From: Candidatus Peribacteria bacterium
Lineage (GTDB): Bacteria > Patescibacteriota > Gracilibacteria > UBA1369 > LOWO2-01-FULL-3
Assembly (NCBI GenBank): GCA_943359415.1
Contig: CALRHQ010000001.1
Location: 1-38,069, forward strand
DNA length: 38,069 bases
Direction: 5' to 3'
In this document: piece by piece, positions 4,673-35,315 of the stretch
Position numbering within the stretch: the first letter of the stretch is position 1
How the letters are laid out: every line of letters begins with the position of its first letter
Program-made: the position numbers and the translations under genes
The notes under the pieces: generated by a model
The model's database searches: none
The model's input: the letters and a program-made list of their open reading frames with translations, nothing else
What the model was told of the DNA's origin: nothing

Positions 4673-6814
4673 TTACTTATTTATGAGAGAAAATGTTCTT
4701 ACAATCATATCGTCGAGTTCCTTCATAGTTATCGATTCATCAGGCCTGAAATATTCATATTGATCGACGATACCATTGTCCACAGCAAAATTTACATAAC
4801 GTGGATACCACCACATATAGCTTATTTTTGCGTTAATATCAACAAAAGATGAAGGTTGATTAGCCAATTTATCATTTCCGCCAAGATCTTTCGCCAATTC
4901 AAATTTATATTTAGGCCCTACAAGCTCTGTCGCTGTAAGAATAACTTTCAGGGCATCTATTCTGGAAATCGTTTCATCGGGCTTAAAAGGGCTATTTTTG
5001 TCATTTAAATAGCCATTTATAACTCCAAGCATTGTAGCAATGTTTATTTCTTCATAGTATTGATTATCTTTTTCAACATCAGGATAAAGAAGAAGGTCAG
5101 GCTCAAGAGTTATGCCGTCAAAAGAAGACATGGCCATAAAATTAAAAAGACAAAATTCTTTATAATTCAAACATTTTTGGATACTGTCTGATTCTTTATT
5201 TCTTAAATCAAATCTGTCGACGACCATTTTTATAACCTCCCCTCTTGAGACTACTCTTTCATTATCCAAATCGGAAATCGGTTTTTTTATTCCAAAAGAT
5301 TCTCCGTTGCCAAGGAATACAAAAGCTTTACCTCCATTTATTCTATTCGTTAAATCTGAATATCTGGACCCAACAAGTAAATCTTTGTTCAAGTCTCCAT
5401 TGAAGTCCAATATATCAAAGCTAAACCCAAACCAATCATCAGAATTTTCACCATGGATAACAGCGGAAAACTCATTTTTTCTTATACTGTAGCGAGATTT
5501 AGCCTCATCAATTTTAACGATATAAACATTCCCCTCTTTAAGGCTTATAGGATTTCCTATACCTGGAGCACCAATAATAACTTCACTTTTTGCATCGCCA
5601 TCAATATCTTCAATCAAAACTTTAGCACCAAGCAAAAGCTCATTTAAAGGATTTTCTATCACAAAGTCAGGTACAACAGATCTAATATTTTTCTTTGAAA
5701 AATCTTCTTTACCATAATAAATAGATACACGACTTTTATTTCTGGGTCCTTCGTATGGAAACGCTGAGATCGCAAAATCAGCTTTCTCATCATTATTTAT
5801 ATTTCCTGTAGCTATGGAAAATCCAAACCATTCATTGTCAAAAATACCGTTAACCACATTCGTAGGCTTATTTACAATTTTTTCAAATTTCTTATTTTCA
5901 TAAATATATACACGTCCAGTTTTATCCATGTTTTGAGTACCTGAATAATAAGCTCCAATAAGTAAATCAATTTTTTTATCACCATTTATATCCCCTGTCG
6001 CAAGAGAAGCTCCAAATCTCTCGCCTTTTGACTGTCCACGAAAAATAATATCAGCATTTGAAGCCAGAGGAGGATAAAAATAGATTCCGGATGATTTTCC
6101 ATAAAATACATACACCTTACCGCTTTCATCTCCGGTAGTGGACAAAGAAAAAGGTGCGGAAACGATTAGATCATCAATTTTGTCTGAGTTGATGTCTGCA
6201 CTTTCCATAAACATACCAAAGGCATCGTTGTCATCGAAACCATATATAGAGAAATCGGTGGATTTATAAGCTAGATCAATATTTTTTTCATTCCAAATGT
6301 TTTTTCCATGTACTATATATATCTGTCCTGGATGCTTATCTTTTTCGTAAGCATAAAAAGCCGAAGCATTGTATGCACCTATGGCTAAATCATCAGTCCC
6401 ATCTCCATTAAAATCCCCTGTCGTTAGGGAAGTACCTAACTGATCTCCTGAATTTCGTCCGGTAACTATAATATCAGCAGTAAAATTAAACGGATTTGGT
6501 TTTTCTGCAGAAAAGTTTTTATTCCCGAAATACACAAGAACCTGTCCATTCCATTTTTTTTCATCTATAGATGCGAATGGAGAGGCAATCGCGACATCTT
6601 GGATGCCATCATTATTAAAATCCCCACTTTTTGTGTCAGCACCAAATTGTCCACCAGGATAAATACCATCAAATTCAAGCTTAGAAGTGTCTACTGAAGT
6701 AAAGAGTTCATGTACATAGGCTTCGTCAAAATTTTCAGCTAATACGCTAATATTTAAAGACATTATAATGCAGACAAACACGGATGTTGAGACTAAAGTC
6801 TTTAAAGGACTCAT
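4673..6814 (-). CDS. Secreted FG-GAP (integrin-alpha-like) repeat protein with C-terminal SLH-like domains
   Basis: Repeated FG..xxxGDxNGDGxDDLxIGA units (GDFNNDGIQDVAIAS, GDFNGDGTDDLAIGA, GDINGDKKIDLLIGA, DFNGDLNKDLLVGS). C-terminal SLH-like segments (YPDVEKDNQYYEEINIATMLGVINGY..FKPDETISRIDALKVIL). Start moved to the ATG at 6812-6814 (MSPLKTLVSTSVF..., signal peptide). Confidence 0.8.
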   Translation of the reverse strand: MSPLKTLVSTSVFVCIIMSLNISVLAENFDEAYVHELFTSVDTSKLEFDGIYPGGQFGADTKSGDFNNDGIQDVAIASPFASIDEKKWNGQVLVYFGNKNFSAEKPNPFNFTADIIVTGRNSGDQLGTSLTTGDFNGDGTDDLAIGAYNASAFYAYEKDKHPGQIYIVHGKNIWNEKNIDLAYKSTDFSIYGFDDNDAFGMFMESADINSDKIDDLIVSAPFSLSTTGDESGKVYVFYGKSSGIYFYPPLASNADIIFRGQSKGERFGASLATGDINGDKKIDLLIGAYYSGTQNMDKTGRVYIYENKKFEKIVNKPTNVVNGIFDNEWFGFSIATGNINNDEKADFAISAFPYEGPRNKSRVSIYYGKEDFSKKNIRSVVPDFVIENPLNELLLGAKVLIEDIDGDAKSEVIIGAPGIGNPISLKEGNVYIVKIDEAKSRYSIRKNEFSAVIHGENSDDWFGFSFDILDFNGDLNKDLLVGSRYSDLTNRINGGKAFVFLGNGESFGIKKPISDLDNERVVSRGEVIKMVVDRFDLRNKESDSIQKCLNYKEFCLFNFMAMSSFDGITLEPDLLLYPDVEKDNQYYEEINIATMLGVINGYLNDKNSPFKPDETISRIDALKVILTATELVGPKYKFELAKDLGGNDKLANQPSSFVDINAKISYMWWYPRYVNFAVDNGIVDQYEYFRPDESITMKELDDMIVRTFSLINK

Positions 6815-28573: not shown

Positions 28574-30286
28574 ATGACAATAAAAGAACAAGTAAAATCC
28601 ATCCTTGAGAAAGCTGTATCAAAAACACTTAAACGTAATGAGCCTATAGACATGGCATATCCTGCAGATATTTCACACGGAGATTATGCGGCAAATATCG
28701 CGATGAAACTTGGAAAAATTATGCAAAAAAATCCAAGAGAAATAGCTGCTCAAATAGTGAAAAATATTCCAAAAAATACACTTATATCAAAAATCGAAAT
28801 AGCTGGACCAGGGTTCATAAACTTCTTCATTTCTGAAAAAGCCCTAAAAAGCGAAATGCTAAAAGTGCTCAAAGAGAAGGCAAAATATGGAAAATGTAAT
28901 GAAGGGAAAAAGAAGAAAGTCATCGTAGAATATAGTGCTCCAAATATTGCAAAACCGCTCGGAGTACATCATTTATTATCCACAGTCATAGGTCAGACAA
29001 TAAACAATATTTTGGGGTGTATCGGATACAAAACGATATCCATAAATCACATCGGAGATTGGGGAACACAGTTTGGAAAATTGATTTATGCATACAAAAA
29101 ATGGGGAAAAAAAGAAATTTTGGAAAAAGATCCCATCAACGAAATGCTGAAACTTTATGTAAAATTTCATGATGAAGCGGAAAAAGATCCAAAACTTGAG
29201 GACTTCGCAAGAAAGGAATTCAAAGATTTTGAAGAAGGAGATAAGGAAAATAGAAAATTATGGAAATGGTTTGTAGCTGAAAGTCTTAAAGATATAAACA
29301 AAACATACAAAAAATTGTCAGGAATAAAATTTGATTTCACTCTTGGAGAAAGCTTTTATGAAGATAAGATGGCGGATATTCTTGCGGAAGGAAAAAAGAA
29401 AAAAATATTTGTTGAAGGGGACGAAGGCTCATACATAGCAAAATTCGAAGATGAAAATATGTCTCCACTCGTGATTCAGAAAAAAGATGGGGCAACTTTA
29501 TACTCAACAAGAGATATCACTACTTTGCATTACCGCATAAATCACTGGCATCCGGAAAAGATTGTATACGTGGTAGATATGGCGCAAAATATGTATTTCA
29601 AGCAGTTGTTTGATGTTGCAAAAAGATTTTCATGGTACAAAAATGAAGCTGTTCACGTAAGTTTCGGAAGAATGAGAATGGCCGACATGCAAATGAGCAC
29701 AAGAAAAGGAAATATAATATTGCTAGATAAAGTGCTTGAGGAAGCCATAAAAAGAGCAAGAAAAATAATAGAAGAAAAAAGTCCTAATTTGAAAAACAAA
29801 GATGCTGTAGCAGAAATAGTGGGTATAGGTTCAGTAAAATACAATATACTTTCACAAAATCGAACCACTGATATAGTTTTCGATTGGGACAAAATGCTTT
29901 CTTTGGAAGGTAATAGCGCGCCATACATGCAATATACTTATGCAAGGGCTAGAAGTATTTTGAGAAAAGCAAAGATGGCTAAATCTTCAGGAAAAACAGT
30001 GGAGGATAAGGCAGAAATTTTAGAAAAAACGTCACAACTTTTACGCACAATTCCTAAATTCAAGGAAGAGCTGATTTATTCTGCACGTGAGTACAAGCCA
30101 AATTTATTATGTCAGTATTTATACGAATTGGCTCAAAAATTTAATTCTTTTTACAACTCAGTTCCTGTTTTGACAGCTAAAGAACCAAAAGATAGATTGT
30201 TTAGACTAAAAGTGGTCGAATCGGTGAGCCAGATCCTACAAAACGGCCTTGATTTACTTGGGGTTGCGGTGGTAGAAGAGATGTAA
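28574..30286 (+). CDS. argS: Arginine--tRNA ligase
   Basis: Class I HIGH-type motif (PLGVHHL), the DALR anticodon-binding C-terminus, and a terminal ...VVEEM typical of ArgRS. 570 aa. Confidence 0.95.
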   Translation: MTIKEQVKSILEKAVSKTLKRNEPIDMAYPADISHGDYAANIAMKLGKIMQKNPREIAAQIVKNIPKNTLISKIEIAGPGFINFFISEKALKSEMLKVLKEKAKYGKCNEGKKKKVIVEYSAPNIAKPLGVHHLLSTVIGQTINNILGCIGYKTISINHIGDWGTQFGKLIYAYKKWGKKEILEKDPINEMLKLYVKFHDEAEKDPKLEDFARKEFKDFEEGDKENRKLWKWFVAESLKDINKTYKKLSGIKFDFTLGESFYEDKMADILAEGKKKKIFVEGDEGSYIAKFEDENMSPLVIQKKDGATLYSTRDITTLHYRINHWHPEKIVYVVDMAQNMYFKQLFDVAKRFSWYKNEAVHVSFGRMRMADMQMSTRKGNIILLDKVLEEAIKRARKIIEEKSPNLKNKDAVAEIVGIGSVKYNILSQNRTTDIVFDWDKMLSLEGNSAPYMQYTYARARSILRKAKMAKSSGKTVEDKAEILEKTSQLLRTIPKFKEELIYSAREYKPNLLCQYLYELAQKFNSFYNSVPVLTAKEPKDRLFRLKVVESVSQILQNGLDLLGVAVVEEM

Positions 30287-30330
30287 TATAATTCGCGAGC
30301 TTTAAGATAACGACCAATCCTAAAAGCAAA

Positions 30331-30507
30331 ACGGCGAGCGCACGGAAAAACGGCGAGCGCACGGCGCGAGCGCGTAGCTAGCGAAGAATATGGCTCTGCC
30401 ATTTCTGAGCGACGCAAAGCCTACAAAATAGCGAGCGCACGGCGCGAGCGCGAACAAGTGAAGCGTGTGGCTATGCAACCGCTGAACGCAGTAAGCCTAC
30501 AAAATAT
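30331..30507. repeat. Tandem GC-rich repeat units immediately upstream of tRNA-Ser(UGA)
   Basis: ACGGCGAGCGCACGG occurs at 30331 and 30350. The exact 22-mer GCGAGCGCACGGCGCGAGCGCG occurs at 30353-30374 and 30431-30452. Each unit ends in AAGCCTACAAAATA (30417-30430, 30493-30506). The two ~78-nt units are diverged copies of each other. Confidence 0.85.
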
Positions 30508-30597
30508 GGAGAGATGGCCGAGTGGTTGAAGGCGACGGTCTTGAAAACCGCTAGGGGTGCAAACTCCTCGGGGGTTCGAATCCCTCTCTCTCCGCCA
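30508..30597 (+). tRNA. tRNA-Ser (anticodon UGA), CCA encoded
   Basis: Hand-folded. Acceptor stem GGAGAGA/TCTCTCC. Anticodon loop CTTGAAA with TGA at 30542-30544. Long variable arm AGGGG-TGCAAA-CTCCT. T-arm GGGGG-TTCGAAT-CCCTC. Discriminator G plus CCA. Confidence 0.9.
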
Positions 30598-30608
30598 TTA
30601 TTATAGTT

Positions 30609-30669
30609 GAGGGATGAGAAGTTTATGCCCCGCAGCGAAGCGAAGGGGTAAATCCCTCTCTCTCCGCCA
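30609..30669 (+). other. tRNA-Ser-linked module A: conserved arm + variable loop + exact copy of the upstream tRNA 3' end
   Basis: AGGGATGAGAAGTTTATGCCC (30610-30630) and GAAGGGGTAAATCCCTC (30642-30658) are identical to 33723-33743 and 33745-33761. The last 19 nt (30651-30669) equal tRNA positions 30579-30597. A T-run follows, then the ATG at 30687. Confidence 0.7.
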
Positions 30670-30686
30670 TTTTTAAAAAACTTCAC

Positions 30687-30920
30687 ATGCCAAATTGGAT
30701 ACAGCAAGAAAAACAATTAATCAAAGAATTTAGTTTTAAAAACTTCGTAGAAGCCATCAATTTCGTTAATCAAGTTGGGGTACTTGCTGAAAAAAACAAT
30801 CACCATCCGGATATTTTTATTTACAATTATAAAAATGTCCGACTCTCATTAAGAACACATAGTGAGGATAAAGTTACCGATAAAGATTATAAATTAGCTG
30901 AAGAAATTGATAAGATCTAA
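30687..30920 (+). CDS. Pterin-4-alpha-carbinolamine dehydratase (PCD/DCoH family)
   Basis: 77 aa. F.F.NF..A..F.N.V...AE..NHHPD....Y..V...L.TH pattern with the HHPD core. Confidence 0.8.
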   Translation: MPNWIQQEKQLIKEFSFKNFVEAINFVNQVGVLAEKNNHHPDIFIYNYKNVRLSLRTHSEDKVTDKDYKLAEEIDKI

Positions 30921-30977
30921 TTTTGTGAATTTATGGTATCCTAGTCGAGCATAAGAATAAATCAAACATAATAAAGA

Positions 30978-32630
30978 TTGGTACTAGAATCAATAATAAA
31001 TCTTGACCAAGCAATCCTTGCAAAGATCGAACCGCTTCAAACGGAATTTTTTATAAAAGTTTTTAAAATAATGACAGACTTCGGAAGCGTAGCGGCTATA
31101 CTTATTTTTACAATTTTACTTCTGATATTTTTACTTTCAAAGAAGGAAATCCAAAAATTTTACGCTGTTGCGTTTACTGCATTTGGAGCATTTTTGACGG
31201 AATTTATATTGAAATATACTGTGCTACGAGAACGTCCTGAAAGGATGATTGTATTTGAAGATGATCCAAGTTTTCCAAGTGGACACACGACAATGTCTTT
31301 CGTATTTTTCATGCTTTTATTTTTTATATTTAAGGACAAAATAAAAAACAAATTTTTGAAATTTATATTTTTTGTAAGCTGTTTGACATTCGCATCACTA
31401 ATAGGATTTAGCAGATTATATTTGCATGTACACAATCCATCGGATGTATTTGCAGGAATAGTTATTGCCATATTTTGGCTCAGCATAGGGCTGAATTTCG
31501 CAGAGGAAGTCATTGCACTGAAAAATATGATACTTAAATTTTTATACAAAAACATTGTAAAAAGAATTGTTTTTCTTTTTGATCCGGAAGATATACATGA
31601 TCATTTCAATAAGATTGGAAGATTTTTGGGAAGCAATGTTGTCACAAGATTATTTACACGGGCGATTTTTTATTATAAAAATGAAGTACTTAAGCAAAAA
31701 ATTCTAGGAATAAAATTCGAAAATCCGGTTGGACTTGCGGCAGGTTTTGATAAAAATATCGAGCTTTATAAAATTCTTCCTGAAGTTGGATTTGGATATG
31801 AAGAAGGTGGGTCAATAACAGGAGATAAATGCTATGGAAACCCAAGACCAAGACTGTGGAGGCTAAAAAAATCTCAAGGGCTTATAGTATATTATGGGTT
31901 AAACAATAAAGGTGCCGACGAAATTTCAAATAGGATTAAAAAAGAAAAATTCAAATTTCCATTAGGCGTAAGTGTTGCAAAAACAAACTGCGAACGCACA
32001 GCGATGTCGGATGAAGGAATCAAAGATTATTTAAAAGGATTTAATCTCACAAAAGAAATCTGTTCATACATGACGATAAATATTTCATGTCCAAATACGC
32101 ATGGAGGACAGCCATTTACGGATCCAGAGTCGTTAGCTAAATTGTTAAAAGTGATAGCGAAAAATAGAAATAAAAAACCTGTTTTTTTGAAAATGCCACC
32201 GGACTTAAAACGCTCGGAAATCGACGACATAATAGAAATAGCTGCAAAGTCTAAAATAGATGGATTTATTTGCACAAACCTCACAAAAGACAGGACAAAC
32301 AAAAAAATGATGACGAAAATTCACGAAAAAAATATCGTAGAATTTGGTGGGATAAGCGGGAAACCTGTCGAAGATTTATCTAATGAAACGATAAAATATA
32401 TTTACAAAAAAACGCAGGGCAAATCAATAATCATAGGAGTTGGAGGTATATTTAATGCAGAGGATGCTTATAAAAAAATACGACTTGGTGCATCACTTTT
32501 GCAGATGATTACTGGCATGATTTTTGAAGGACCTCAGGTCATAGGAGAGATCAATCAAGGCCTTGTAAAACTTCTAAAAAAAGACGGCCTTGAGAATATC
32601 TCGCAGGCCGTCGGAATCGATAACAAATAG
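30978..32630 (+). CDS. pyrD: Fusion protein: N-terminal PAP2 (type 2 phosphatidic acid/undecaprenyl-PP phosphatase-like) membrane domain + class-2-like dihydroorotate dehydrogenase
   Basis: TTG start at 30978. PAP2 motifs KYTVLRERP, PSGH and SRLYLHVHNPSD lie in residues ~79-156. From Met184 (ATG 31527) a full PyrD follows: LFDPEDIHD, FENPVGLAAGFDKN, GNPRPRLWRL, NISCPNT, GGISG, IGVGGI. There is no stop between the two parts. Confidence 0.8.
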   Translation: MVLESIINLDQAILAKIEPLQTEFFIKVFKIMTDFGSVAAILIFTILLLIFLLSKKEIQKFYAVAFTAFGAFLTEFILKYTVLRERPERMIVFEDDPSFPSGHTTMSFVFFMLLFFIFKDKIKNKFLKFIFFVSCLTFASLIGFSRLYLHVHNPSDVFAGIVIAIFWLSIGLNFAEEVIALKNMILKFLYKNIVKRIVFLFDPEDIHDHFNKIGRFLGSNVVTRLFTRAIFYYKNEVLKQKILGIKFENPVGLAAGFDKNIELYKILPEVGFGYEEGGSITGDKCYGNPRPRLWRLKKSQGLIVYYGLNNKGADEISNRIKKEKFKFPLGVSVAKTNCERTAMSDEGIKDYLKGFNLTKEICSYMTINISCPNTHGGQPFTDPESLAKLLKVIAKNRNKKPVFLKMPPDLKRSEIDDIIEIAAKSKIDGFICTNLTKDRTNKKMMTKIHEKNIVEFGGISGKPVEDLSNETIKYIYKKTQGKSIIIGVGGIFNAEDAYKKIRLGASLLQMITGMIFEGPQVIGEINQGLVKLLKKDGLENISQAVGIDNK

Positions 32631-32635
32631 ATTTA

Positions 32636-33454
32636 CTATTTTACCGGAAAGCTTTTTGAATCAGTTATATCAACAAAACTTTCTACTCCATCAACTTCGC
32701 CTTTTTCAGCTGCAGTTACATAGTATTCAACGCTTTCAGTGAATTTAAGCTTTAGATCACTTTTGACCTGTATAACCCCATCCTTTTCTGTGACAAGAGG
32801 CTTTGAAGGAACATTCGGTTCAACTATTACAAGTTTGTCATCTTTTCTTTGAACAACGTAAGCCGCTCCATCAAGACATGGATTAATTCCATTATCCGCA
32901 TAAGCTTTACACATGTTAACTTCAACAGTATATTCATCGGCTCCAACATCTTTGAACTCTACTAAGAAAGTTTCATCTTGTTTTGGTAGAGCACTTGGAG
33001 CAGAAATAGCCGGAAGCTCAATTCGGTCAGGCATAGGTACAGAAATTTCTTTCGATACATAAGTTCCATCTTCAAAAGTTATTTTTATAAGGAAATCATT
33101 AGAGCTTTTTTTGATATCATCTCCTTTCAAGACAACGCTACATTTGTGAGGAAATCTAGGCCTGTCACACATATTTCCACTTTCAGGTTCTTGATCACTT
33201 GTCTCACTTACATACATAAGTTTTGGATTTATAGCATCTGACAATTCAGAAGAATATAGGTCGCCAGCTTCATTTTCAGGCTCACTTAAGCCAAGATCAG
33301 GACGCTCCAAGTAAAGATCAAAATTCAAGAATTTATCCCCTCTCCATGAAATATTATCAAGAGTAAGATTAACTTTACTTGATGACGTAGCGCATCCGGT
33401 TAAGACAAACGAAGTAATAATAACTCCTGAAACTAATAATTTTAAATTCTTCAT
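32636..33454 (-). CDS. Hypothetical lipoprotein
   Basis: 272 aa. Signal peptide with lipobox (SFVLTGC). No recognised domain. Confidence 0.6.
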   Translation of the reverse strand: MKNLKLLVSGVIITSFVLTGCATSSSKVNLTLDNISWRGDKFLNFDLYLERPDLGLSEPENEAGDLYSSELSDAINPKLMYVSETSDQEPESGNMCDRPRFPHKCSVVLKGDDIKKSSNDFLIKITFEDGTYVSKEISVPMPDRIELPAISAPSALPKQDETFLVEFKDVGADEYTVEVNMCKAYADNGINPCLDGAAYVVQRKDDKLVIVEPNVPSKPLVTEKDGVIQVKSDLKLKFTESVEYYVTAAEKGEVDGVESFVDITDSKSFPVK

Positions 33455-33519
33455 AATTATTTTGTTAAATAGTAACTATATTTATAACTTTGATTAACCA
33501 AAAAAACAAGAAAATCACC

Positions 33520-33548
33520 TAGACTTTGTGTAATGTTTTCCATATAGT
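33520..33548 (+). promoter_or_regulatory. Candidate sigma70-type promoter for tRNA-Ser(GCU)
   Basis: TAGACT (33520-33525), a 17-nt spacer, then TATAGT (33543-33548), about 30 nt upstream of the tRNA 5' end. Pattern match only. Confidence 0.3.
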
Positions 33549-33578
33549 GATGTAGCTTTTTGACTAGCAAAACCCAAT

Positions 33579-33709
<131 letters not shown>

Positions 33710-33721
33710 GGATAAGATTGG

Positions 33722-33772
33722 TAGGGATGAGAAGTTTATGCCCAGAAGGGGTAAATCCCTCCCTCTCCGCCA
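33722..33772 (+). other. tRNA-Ser-linked module B: same conserved arm as module A + short loop + exact copy of the upstream tRNA 3' end
   Basis: The last 19 nt (33754-33772) equal tRNA positions 33653-33671, including the tRNA-specific CCTCTCC acceptor strand. A T-run follows, and the ppcA ATG is 35 nt downstream. Confidence 0.7.
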
Positions 33773-33806
33773 TTTTTTCCTACTCAAGATTTACCCGCCA
33801 AATCCT

Positions 33807-35315
33807 ATGAGAAAAATACCCGCAACAATGGCAACGCAGCATCCAGACAATGCTTCAGCGGCATATTTCACTGGAAAAAGATTTATTTCTGTTAACGATG
33901 AGATAGAAGAATGCGTCAGATCTTTCTCCGAACTGAATGTGGAAGAATATATGTGGGATTGGGAAGGGAAATTCGTAGACGAAGCGGTAATAGATAGACT
34001 TTTCAATAAATATCACAGTTTTTTTTCAAAGAAACAAATAGGCAGAGATGTATTTTTAACTTTCAGAGTTCCAAATATTTGGCTTGAGCCAAGCCACAAA
34101 CTTCCTCGTGCTTTCATGAGTATGATTACAGCAGAGAATGCTGCAAAGACTTATAAGATGCACGCTCCACCGCTTTTTGAAGTGATTTTGCCCATGACAA
34201 CAAGTGCAGATCAGCTTATTTATTTGCAAAAAACATTTTCAAAAATATCGAAAGCCACAAAAGAAATTTTTGAAATGAAATCCGATTTGAAAAGAATAGA
34301 CGTGATTCCACTTTTTGAAAAATTTGAAACACTACCGAAAATAAAATCAATTTTAAAAGAATATATCGATTTTCTTAAAAAGGAATATCACTTCAAACCT
34401 CAGTACATGCGGACTTTCACAGCGAGAAGCGATACGGCTATGAATAGCGGTTTTTTGCCTGCAAAACTTTTTTCAAAACAAGCAATAAGCCTTTATCATG
34501 AATTTGGAGAAGAAGAAAATATCAAAATGTATCCATGGGTTGGAGGTGGTGCATTGCCATTTAGAGGCGGAATAAATCCTGAAAACATAGATGCCGTTTT
34601 GGAGGAATATAAAGGAGTGGCAACGCTTACACTTCAGAGTGCATTTAGATATGATTATCCTCTGAAGGAAGTGAAAAAGGCCATCAAGAAGTTAAATGAA
34701 AAAATTCCGGAAAATAGGAAAAAATACATAAAAATCAGTGCAAAAGAGCAGGAACAATTAAATGATTTTAATAATTACGTTTCAAGATATTTCAAATCTG
34801 TTATAGAGCCGTCAGCGGAAATGATAAATCATTTAGGTAAAAAATTACCTCAAAACAGAGAACGTATACAGCATGTCGGACTCTTCGGATATTCACGCGG
34901 AGAAGGAAAAATAAAACTTCCACGCGCAATTATTTTTACCGGAGCTTTATATTCATTGGGAGTTCCTCCGGAGTTGATAGGGCAGGGAAGAGCGCTTTTG
35001 TATGCGAAGAAAAAAGGCATGTTGGATCTGATAAAACATTTATGTCCATATTTGATAGAAGATTTTAGACATGCCGGACATTACTTAAACAGAGAAAATC
35101 TTGATCTTTTATGCAAAAAAAACGACATATGGAAAGATGTAAGAGATGAGATAAAAGACATAGAAAAAATAATAGGAGTAGAAATCGGACAAGAAAAAAC
35201 GAGCCATATAATCCACAGAAATCTCACATCAAATATTTATCAACGATTAATTACTAATGAAGATTTTTCTGAAGACGCGATAAGGGCAGCGGAAATCAGG
35301 AAATCATTGGGGTAA
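33807..35315 (+). CDS. ppcA: Archaeal-type phosphoenolpyruvate carboxylase (PEPcase_2 family)
   Basis: N-terminus MRKIPATMATQHPDN is the hallmark (I/M)P..M.TQHPDN. ARSDTAMNSG, GGGALPFRGG, LQSAFRYD, PRAIIFTGALYSLGVPPELIG and a C-terminal ...RKSLG are present. ~500 aa, versus ~900 aa for bacterial Ppc. Start set at Met46 of the track ORF. Confidence 0.85.
   Translation: MRKIPATMATQHPDNASAAYFTGKRFISVNDEIEECVRSFSELNVEEYMWDWEGKFVDEAVIDRLFNKYHSFFSKKQIGRDVFLTFRVPNIWLEPSHKLPRAFMSMITAENAAKTYKMHAPPLFEVILPMTTSADQLIYLQKTFSKISKATKEIFEMKSDLKRIDVIPLFEKFETLPKIKSILKEYIDFLKKEYHFKPQYMRTFTARSDTAMNSGFLPAKLFSKQAISLYHEFGEEENIKMYPWVGGGALPFRGGINPENIDAVLEEYKGVATLTLQSAFRYDYPLKEVKKAIKKLNEKIPENRKKYIKISAKEQEQLNDFNNYVSRYFKSVIEPSAEMINHLGKKLPQNRERIQHVGLFGYSRGEGKIKLPRAIIFTGALYSLGVPPELIGQGRALLYAKKKGMLDLIKHLCPYLIEDFRHAGHYLNRENLDLLCKKNDIWKDVRDEIKDIEKIIGVEIGQEKTSHIIHRNLTSNIYQRLITNEDFSEDAIRAAEIRKSLG

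Follow-up and report, generated by a model that had tools for sequence, protein, structure and literature searches.

Why is a tRNA gene followed by a second copy of its own 3' end? The question arises twice in the window analysed here, the whole 38,069-nt stretch of a Candidatus Peribacteria contig. Two serine tRNA genes in it are each followed by a hairpin, referred to below as the module, that runs into a repeat of the tRNA end.

Two serine tRNA genes and their repeated 3' ends

The features of the two loci are as follows.

30508-30597, forward strand: tRNA-Ser(UGA) (ARAGORN; Rfam tRNA, 57.6 bits; sequence)
30579-30597, forward strand: first repeat copy of locus 1, the last 19 nt of tRNA-Ser(UGA), from T-loop A58 to CCA
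30598-30608, forward strand: short AT-rich spacer without a terminator hairpin (sequence; fold)
30609-30658, forward strand: module 1 hairpin (sequence; covariation in 53 + 96 distinct copies; covariance-model match of 67.1 bits)
30609-30615 and 30652-30658, forward strand: helix P1 of module 1, 5' strand GAGGGAU and 3' strand AUCCCUC
30616-30625, forward strand: bulge of module 1, GAGAAGUUUA
30626-30631 and 30645-30650, forward strand: P2/P3 of module 1, 5' strand UGCCCC and 3' strand GGGGUA
30632-30644, forward strand: loop of module 1, with GCGAAGC
30651, forward strand: unpaired A of module 1
30651-30671, forward strand: second copy of the tRNA-Ser(UGA) 3' end (AATCCCTCTCTCTCCGCCA plus TT), then a T5 run (sequence; repeat lengths)
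33579-33671, forward strand: tRNA-Ser(GCU) (ARAGORN; Rfam tRNA, 53.2 bits)
33653-33671, forward strand: first repeat copy of locus 2, the last 19 nt of tRNA-Ser(GCU)
33672-33722, forward strand: spacer of locus 2, a terminator-like hairpin ('T1') at 33672-33708 (fold) and then a 14-nt linker
33723-33760, forward strand: module 2 hairpin (sequence; covariance-model match of 70.4 bits)
33723-33728 and 33755-33760, forward strand: P1 of module 2, AGGGAU with AUCCCU
33729-33738, forward strand: bulge of module 2, GAGAAGUUUA
33739-33743 and 33749-33753, forward strand: UGCCC with GGGUA in module 2, closing a short loop
33754-33774, forward strand: second copy of the tRNA-Ser(GCU) 3' end (AATCCCTCCCTCTCCGCCA plus TT), then T6 (sequence)

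At locus 1, AATCCCTCTCTCTCCGCCA was found at 30579-30597 and again at 30651-30669, with the identity extending 2 nt further (TT). At locus 2, AATCCCTCCCTCTCCGCCA was found at 33653-33671 and 33754-33772. Each repeat matches its own upstream tRNA and thus carries the single-base variant of that tRNA. These results confirm the 19-nt copy of the tRNA-Ser(UGA) tail claimed in the original prediction, which was also correct that this copy is not a second tRNA, and a like module with its own tail stands behind the other tRNA-Ser. The 21-mer AGGGATGAGAAGTTTATGCCC occurs exactly twice in the window (30610 and 33723) against 0 expected (100 shuffles), and a covariance model from relatives found only these two module sites in the 38 kb (67 and 70 bits). 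The two modules had been described as identical apart from a variable loop. This holds for the core, which is shared, but the spacers also differ, being about 11-13 nt at the first locus and about 51-52 nt at the second, where a terminator-like hairpin is present. Since the locus 1 spacer has no terminator hairpin, module 1 is expected to be carried on the tRNA transcript.

We also checked the window against all 4227 covariance models of Rfam 15, ribozymes, riboswitches and sRNAs included, and only tRNA reached threshold. A weak sX4 match (33 bits, gathering threshold 70) covered the tRNA plus the start of the module.

A conserved hairpin behind many tRNA genes

The module is not unique to the window: around 240 copies came to light, chiefly in Patescibacteria and Clostridia and also in a few other lineages. 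Comparison of the copies defined a common architecture. Helix P1 pairs (N)GGGAU with AUCCC(N'), and is followed on its 5' side by a 10-nt bulge of almost invariant sequence, (GAGAA or UCGAA)GUUUA, with a single A opposite. The bulge reads GAGAAGUUUA in the window and UCGAAGUUUA in many Clostridia. Next, U(G/A)CCC(N) pairs with (N')GGG(U/C)A to form P2/P3, and at the top of the stem is a loop of 3 to ~45 nt, frequently itself a small hairpin containing GCGAAGC. Hairpin length is 45-80 nt across copies; the window modules are single stems of 38-50 nt with a 3-13-nt loop.

The outer helix is derived from the tRNA. Its 3' strand belongs to the tRNA copy, from which it takes T-loop positions 59-60 and the 3' side of the T-stem, sometimes with the first acceptor bases too. 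Its 5' strand is an inverted copy of the same part of the tRNA, the T-loop and T-stem 3' strand. In module 1, the first 8 nt of the second tRNA-end copy (30651 onwards) supply the P1 3' strand, with the unpaired A at their head. The direct copy mostly extends to the tRNA 3' end, resulting in a repeat of 17-19 nt.

Pairing was assessed in 53 genome copies and, independently, in 96 distinct metagenome copies. Approximately 82% of cells were paired, compared with ~50% when the partner strand was slid. Six pair types were seen at the sixth P1 pair and four to six at the fourth P3 pair, including C-G, A-U, U-A and G-C, whilst the G.U of P2 was replaced by A-U or G-C. Where the upstream gene was a tRNA-Asn with T-stem CCAGU, the module helix became cUGGAU...AUCCAG, indicating that the helix tracks the tRNA. 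Thus, the module is a hairpin backed by covariation, and its closing helix joins two copies of the tRNA T-loop and T-stem, one inverted and one direct. The AGGGAT/ATCCCT and GCCCC/GGGG pairings first drawn from the window alone are borne out by this analysis (GGGAU/AUCCC and GCCC/GGG). Beyond 6 bp of P1, pairing was genuine but partial, with a mean of 2.0 contiguous bp against 1.0 in permutations. P1 enters the acceptor strand in only a subset of copies, and a full minihelix is therefore rare.

Other readings of the hairpin were tried and dropped. By eye, a mini-ORF running from an internal AUG to a conserved UAA loses its frame, as loop lengths are not multiples of three, and the core nucleotides do not fit a hammerhead or a K-turn, neither of which gave an Rfam match. 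Similarity to the XerD arm of dif after removal of the hairpin (TTATG..TAAAT) was too weak and wrongly spaced. No promoter was found within the module.

The exact 20-mer was present at 55 loci in species-representative genomes and at 117 metagenome loci. Patescibacteria made up the majority of carriers (Peregrini-, Peri-, Gracili-, Parcu-, Moran-, Falkow-, Magasanik- and Komeilibacteria). The others were Oscillospiraceae and further Clostridia, Micavibrio, Bdellovibrionales and some MAGs labelled Gammaproteobacteria. A relaxed-pattern search added the bulge forms UCGAA, UCGAG, UUGAA, GAUGA and AAGAA; GAGAA was the commonest variant, and the GAGAA and UCGAA forms each occurred in both phyla. 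There were one to three copies per genome, and tandem arrays of two to six units were found at five loci (L046, L040, L009, L035, L298). Among 35 tRNAs in 80 Patescibacteria loci picked for an unrelated gene, the module was present only in close relatives of the window. A 17-mer query of 2.9 million viral contigs (IMG/VR) returned only chance coding matches, and the 71-nt module (the short form) had no match in E. coli genomes, PLSDB plasmids or INPHARED phages.

The module lay on the same strand as the tRNA, 7-97 nt downstream (median 51), and terminators were often found on both of its sides. In 121 distinct tRNA-module pairs, 12 kinds of upstream tRNA were identified: Ser (75 pairs), Gln, Tyr, Arg, Val, Asn, Ala, Lys, His, Leu, Glu and Asp. 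We tabulated tails against upstream tRNAs, as had been suggested at the outset, and in 93 of these 121 pairs the tail equalled the tRNA from T-loop A58 to its end. In some copies the tail was imperfect, being decayed or broken by a GC palindrome. Copying of the tail from mature tRNA, as judged where CCA is absent from the gene, was rejected: it fitted 2 of ~14 cases, the chance expectation. An intron in the tRNA T-loop was likewise rejected, as all modules within 120 nt of a tRNA call follow a complete tRNA and the degenerate upstream copies at L022, L309 and L339 have no tRNA body before them. Three further copies without a tRNA (L030, L044, L032) have a left-hand identity of 5-9 nt.

Likeness to RtT and other tRNA-linked repeats

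The original prediction knew of no described element with this layout. It is, however, the defining layout of the tRNA-linked repeats (TLRs) of E. coli, which are recognised by 18-19 bp of identity to the 3' end of the upstream tRNA or rRNA and number 22 at ten loci, with one to five units per locus (PMC8144298). As far as the literature examined goes, TLRs as a class (Egan & Landy 1978; Rudd 1999; Stenum et al. 2021; PMC8144298) have been described only from E. coli and other enterics. Behind rrnA, rrnB and rrnD, the TLR is placed after terminator T1 and before T2; its transcript arises when polymerase reads through T1, and is then processed (PMC8144298). In vitro, rrn-linked TLRs bind Hfq and CsrA, a property shown for the rrn members only, and their repeated end has been proposed as an RNase E processing signal (PMC8144298). 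TLRs beside tRNA genes have no known function or origin (PMC8144298). Co-transcription followed by processing to a discrete RNA is known only for E. coli RtT and RrA/B/F (PMC8144298, PMC3318445).

RtT, or rttR, denotes the units of the tyrT-tyrV operon (Rfam RF00391; Bosl & Kersten 1991, as cited in PMC8144298 and PMC3318445). In E. coli K-12 tyrT-tyrV, AATCCTTCCCCCACCACCA occurs six times; the units recur every 178 nt, and each RtT unit reads ...GGGGAAGGAU GAGAAGCUU ... GAGUA AUCCUUCCCC ACCACCA. Like the module, RtT follows a tRNA gene on the tRNA strand and forms tandem arrays, and its last 19 nt are an exact copy of the tRNA 3' end, beginning at the T-loop AAUCC. The outer helix is GGGGAAGGAU/AUCCUUCCCC in E. 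coli and GAGGGAU/AUCCCUC and AGGGAU/AUCCCU in the window; RF00391 draws the same outer helix for RtT, with the E. coli units scoring 133-137 bits. Directly 3' of the outer-helix 5' strand both have GAGAAG(C/U)UU, tyrT RtT showing the same GAUGAGAAG bulge, and the extended bulge motif reads GGGAUGAGAAGUUU in the window and GGAUGAGAAGCUU in E. coli. The junction G-UA(A)AUCC and the interior GCGAAGC are also shared. The two differ in size and setting. In E. coli the unit measures ~130 nt and has a branched ~80-nt interior (two inner hairpins), whereas the window form is a single stem. RtT is enterobacterial and stands behind tRNA-Tyr, whereas the short form stands behind 12 tRNA types in Patescibacteria, Clostridia and others.

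A model built solely from Patescibacteria copies (R1) matched all four RtT units (18.6 bits, E ~5e-4) and did not match tRNAs. In the reverse direction, the Rfam RtT model gave no match in window positions 30200-34000 at E up to 10 (gathering threshold 45 bits), nor did it match any of seven related loci at E up to 0.1. As the RtT model misses the window copies, the kinship rests on the helix, the 12-nt motif and the junction. With the wider TLR class the module shares its same-strand position after the tRNA, its arrays of units and the repeat itself, which is identical over 19/19 nt at both window loci and exact in most pairs elsewhere. The T1-unit-T2 layout of the rrn members is also seen in most long-spacer module copies. 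The rrnB TLR shares the repeat and the position between T1 and T2, yet lacks an obvious inverted 5S copy and the GAGAAG bulge, indicating that the TLR class is heterogeneous. This rrnB TLR lies inside the T1T2 terminator fragment that is common in cloning vectors.

The feature is thus a miniature tRNA-linked repeat and a short relative of the E. coli RtT unit, the kinship being one of layout. This short TLR/RtT-like form is more widely distributed than expected, and its conserved core is sharply delimited. The TLR architecture is therefore also present in Patescibacteria and gut Clostridia, reduced to a hairpin of ~45 nt with a nearly invariant 10-nt bulge. Nothing is overturned by this, but what has been an E. 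coli oddity since 1978 becomes a comparative, testable problem, with the short module as a minimal and comparatively defined object for tests of processing, partners or excision.

Insertion, persistence and possible roles of the module

Empty and filled sites were compared in 65 species sharing an identical 29-nt tRNA-Ser(UGA) end. The module was present in six of these, a longer insert with like ends (GGGAUUCGAAC...UCGAAUCCC plus tail) in five, and neither in the rest. In the filled loci L103 and L105, the DNA past the distal copy is the orthologue of what immediately follows the tRNA in the empty loci L408, L361 and L412. A filled site is thus an empty site plus the terminator, linker and hairpin and one extra A58-CCA copy. 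The module therefore arrived as a gene-less, repeat-flanked insertion of ~75-135 bp, and such pairs of sites reveal how tRNA-linked units arise.

We next compared the orthologous site between tRNA-Ser(GCU) and PEP carboxylase in five relatives (77-84% amino-acid identity). A GAGAA module stands there in the window and L156, a UCGAA module with remnants in L159, and a different insert of ~150 nt in L157 and L160; remnants of several kinds are found in the 3' flanks of tRNAs in these genomes. Between the window and L022/L156 (84% amino-acid identity) the tRNA is identical and the spacer, although homologous, is only ~50% identical with indels. The module core is identical at 21/22 and 20/20 positions, the one change being compensatory. 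In L156, GAAGGGGTAAATCCCTCCCT is unchanged and the loop has an 11-nt indel. The distal tail (CTCCGCCA... / CTCCGCCATTTT...) is deleted at the L022/L156 locus and the hairpin is retained. In five aligned Oscillospiraceae species, core and tail are identical, loops vary compensatorily and the downstream DNA is unalignable. Resident copies keep their core while their own spacer diverges, which implies selection in place. Thus, the site turns over, and other inserts can take the place of the module, yet the hairpin core is conserved while its flanks diverge.

No gene family was found to accompany the module. All-against-all BLASTP of 408 neighbouring ORFs revealed no shared protein family, and Pfam scans of 193 neighbouring ORFs (84 + 109) no recurrent one. 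Pfam recombinase domains occurred near modules at two loci only (a large serine recombinase beside L033 and L010) and never between the repeats. Neither an integrase-bearing element nor any gene was found between tRNA and module in the ~240 copies examined. A single TnpA, an IS200-type transposase at L291, was a secondary insertion into the linker. With this TnpA secondary, the 17-19-nt repeat present and short-spacer copies consisting of a single hairpin, a palindromic element derived from IS200/IS605 was rejected.

A direct repeat from the T-loop to the tRNA 3' end is, as reportedly described by Williams (2002), the classic signature of T-loop-targeting tyrosine integrases. The module shares with att sites and CIMEs this repeat, flanking DNA absent from relatives, species-polymorphic insertion, a terminator supplied beside the tRNA and tandem accretion. 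It differs in that the unit is only 75-135 bp with no integrase in or near it, and in that a structured hairpin conserved across phyla abuts the distal repeat. Integron attC sites may offer a second parallel. In these, too, two paired boxes form a hairpin in which one strand has unpaired bases and the terminal loop varies greatly in length, the sequence past the crossover is inherited from the partner site, and arrays occur. Unlike attC, the module has no R/L box consensus (GTTRRRY), no ORF cassettes and no nearby IntI, and it is conserved in sequence beyond structure alone.

As to function, we tentatively put forward a co-transcribed tRNA-end mimic, released as a small RNA with its bulge bound by a partner, and rate this at somewhat under an even chance. 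The proposal extends by analogy the one made for rrn TLRs (PMC8144298), and on that analogy the tRNA-3'-end mimic among the original hypotheses appears to be the best functional reading. The module would be transcribed with the tRNA, directly at 8-20-nt spacers such as that at 30598 and by read-through at spacers such as that at 33672. P1 and the single-stranded acceptor/CCA tail would imitate the acceptor/T-arm end of a tRNA, and nucleases that trim tRNA ends would then release the module as a stable RNA of small size. The near-invariant bulge, (GAGAA or UCGAA)GUUUA, for which a T-loop-like turn is possible, would be the putative partner-binding site. Several observations run against the mimic. 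A T-run or terminator lies between tRNA and module in 69 of 87 long spacers, which would limit transcription. The tail is lost in L022/L156 with the hairpin intact, and is decayed or interrupted by a palindrome in others. The full acceptor minihelix is rare, and no function is known for the tRNA-linked E. coli TLRs (PMC8144298).

The module may instead be a gene-less miniature integrative, selfish element, a possibility that we consider doubtful although worth serious attention. The unit of tRNA 3' end, spacer/terminator and hairpin would be moved in trans by site-specific recombination at the T-loop/3' end, with the hairpin acting as the recombination site in the form of folded single-stranded DNA (cf. 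attC and CTX phage attP) and the 19-nt repeat as an att-type core. This fits filled and empty sites that differ exactly by the unit and one repeat between orthologous flanks, the patchy occupancy of an identical tRNA end (the module in 6/65 species, another insert in five), the turnover and nested remnants at the orthologous site in five relatives, and the tandem arrays and tRNA-less copies (L030, L044, L032). Both bulge variants occur in both phyla, terminator insulation on both sides is common, and the G.T-tolerant, strand-specific pairing suits single-stranded DNA as well as RNA. However, recombinases were not enriched among the 193 neighbouring ORFs, with the large serine recombinase at two loci; the module was not found in 2.9 million viral contigs, PLSDB or INPHARED, so no vector is known; and there are only one to three copies per genome. 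A purely selfish copy would not feel the selection that keeps the core of resident copies despite spacer divergence, and a double-stranded circle of 75-135 bp is implausible as an intermediate. Of the original suggestion of an att-type or miniature element of a tRNA-Ser-targeting integrase, the insertion is borne out by the empty and filled sites. The integrase is not, as no gene is enclosed, and neither is the preference for tRNA-Ser, as 12 tRNA identities are used. A plain functionless attL/attR scar of a tRNA-targeting phage or island integrase is very improbable. It would account for the direct repeat and the varied remnants in tRNA 3' flanks, but the full element that relatives might have carried between the repeats was seen in 0 of ~240 copies, and a 20-nt core identical across phyla with covarying stems, conserved where flanks diverge, is unexpected for a decaying scar. 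Partial tRNA copies beside tRNA genes are here not automatically boundaries of prophages or islands.

Two readings look for a target in cis. In one, the 5' arm (GGGAUUCGAA, or GGGAUGAGAA with tandem G.A) would pair with the T-loop/T-stem 3' strand of the nascent tRNA until displaced by the 3' arm of the module, and this switch would time or check tRNA folding and 3' maturation. In the UCGAA form, GGGAUUCGAA is fully complementary to UUCGAAUCCC over 10 nt, the UUGAA and UCGAG variants preserve this pairing via wobble, and the module is always near the tRNA and on its strand. We nevertheless regard such an antisense switch as decidedly unlikely, as GAGAA, the commonest variant, weakens the pairing, a terminator separates tRNA and module in most Clostridia copies, orphan copies persist without a tRNA, and ~50 related species with the same tRNA lack the module. 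The other, a leader or regulatory element of the downstream gene, came from the original prediction and receives hardly any credence. Both window modules do lie 17-40 nt before same-strand start codons: a pterin-4a-carbinolamine dehydratase-like ORF starts at 30687, 17 nt past the copy as had been noted, and a PEP carboxylase gene follows 33772. This position is not general across loci. The next ORF was convergent, on the opposite strand, in 12 of 39 loci, distances ranged from overlap to >1 kb and the downstream genes were unrelated to one another; moreover, a terminator is frequent after the tail, and the module held no promoter-like site.

An RNA role and an integrative origin are compatible, as an insertion can be kept for an RNA function. 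A broader reading, speculative and on the whole unlikely, is that the module represents the ancient and minimal core of a superfamily spanning phyla, with RtT among its members. Such an element would carry no genes and be confined to tRNA 3' flanks, propagating by T-loop/3'-end recombination, with its folded hairpin (single-stranded DNA or RNA) recognised by a host enzyme. If true, this would be a new kind of minimal mobile element, one that repairs its target tRNA on insertion.

Inserts and palindromes at tRNA 3′ ends

Two further kinds of insert, and a short palindrome within the tail (the copy of the upstream tRNA 3′ end at the distal side of the canonical hairpin module), were found at the loci compared with the window (L-numbers).

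L025 (1650-2000, minus strand), L006, L008, L239, L362, L369, L373, L402 and L406: 'type-2' insert, 90-150 nt
L157 and L160, downstream of tRNA-Ser(GCU): third insert, ~150 nt, AGTAGCGAGATTTGCGG...GAAAGCTTAGCAAATCCCTATTGAAG
L015, L041, L050/L158 (2643-2860), L077 and L309: short GC-rich palindrome in the tail

The 'type-2' insert starts with GGGATTCGAAC; at its other end, (C)GAA(A)ATCCC precedes the duplicated tRNA 3′ end. This insert shares its end architecture with the canonical module but is longer and has a different interior, and an Rfam search with it returned no match. In L008 and L250, a canonical module has its P3 stem directly joined to this insert. The third insert occupies, in L157 and L160, the site 3′ of tRNA-Ser(GCU) where the window has its module; a 3′ remnant of the canonical module comes after this insert in L157 and L159. 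The palindrome, GCCTGCCGGCAGGC or GGCCGCCTCTGGCGGGCC, lies inside the copied tail directly 3′ of the P1 3′ strand, and its insertions in several loci are independent events.

Recombinase and transposase genes near modules

L033 2585-4171, minus strand; also L032/L281: large serine recombinase ORF
L291 3800-4310: IS200-type Y1 transposase gene, hairpins on both sides

The serine recombinase ORF runs antisense across the terminator, tail and module and extends into the tRNA 3′ end. A block consisting of CCGCATAAATAAAA, module, tail, terminator and recombinase 3′ end occurs twice on a single contig, the second copy without a tRNA. A homologue of this recombinase lies 1.5 kb from the module of L010. 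The Y1 transposase gene of L291 interrupts the T-run separating the first terminator from the module, and was judged to be a secondary insertion.

Repeats in L315 and E. coli rrnB

L315, around 5050-5200, minus strand: canonical module between 45-nt direct repeats
L423 (E. coli rrnB 3′ end) 240-470: tRNA-linked repeat (TLR) within the rrnB T1-T2 terminator fragment

The L315 direct repeats are not obviously a tRNA, and the upstream one is preceded by a hairpin, GTTGTGAGC...GCTCACAAC. In L423, AACTGCCAGGCATCAAAT at the 5S 3′ end is repeated between T1 and T2, and the TLR interior holds a GCGAAGC mini-hairpin. The T1-T2 terminator fragment is widely used in cloning vectors.

Surroundings of the first window module

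30328-30511: GC-rich direct repeats, immediately 5′ of tRNA-Ser(UGA)
30687-30920: small pterin-4a-carbinolamine dehydratase-like ORF
30978-32630: 550-aa ORF, following the dehydratase-like ORF

Homologues of the 550-aa ORF in Peregrinibacteria, Peribacteria and Gracilibacteria MAGs are 77-84% identical to it, indicating that the window belongs with this group. In more distant Patescibacteria the match is confined to its C-terminal part, ~370 residues starting at about residue 150-190; there, Pfam detected a dihydroorotate-dehydrogenase (DHO_dh) family among downstream ORFs, the L022 homologue being one of these ORFs. This suggests that an N-terminal membrane domain is fused to the rest of the 550-aa ORF.

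The upstream repeats include three copies of AAAACGGCGAGCGCACGG... and two of AAGCCTACAAAATA, the second adjoining the tRNA-Ser(UGA) 5′ end. A similar sequence, GCGAAGCCTACAAAAA, likewise lies 5′ of tRNA-Ser(UGA) in L050. The repeats stand out in the window, the rest of which has 35% GC.
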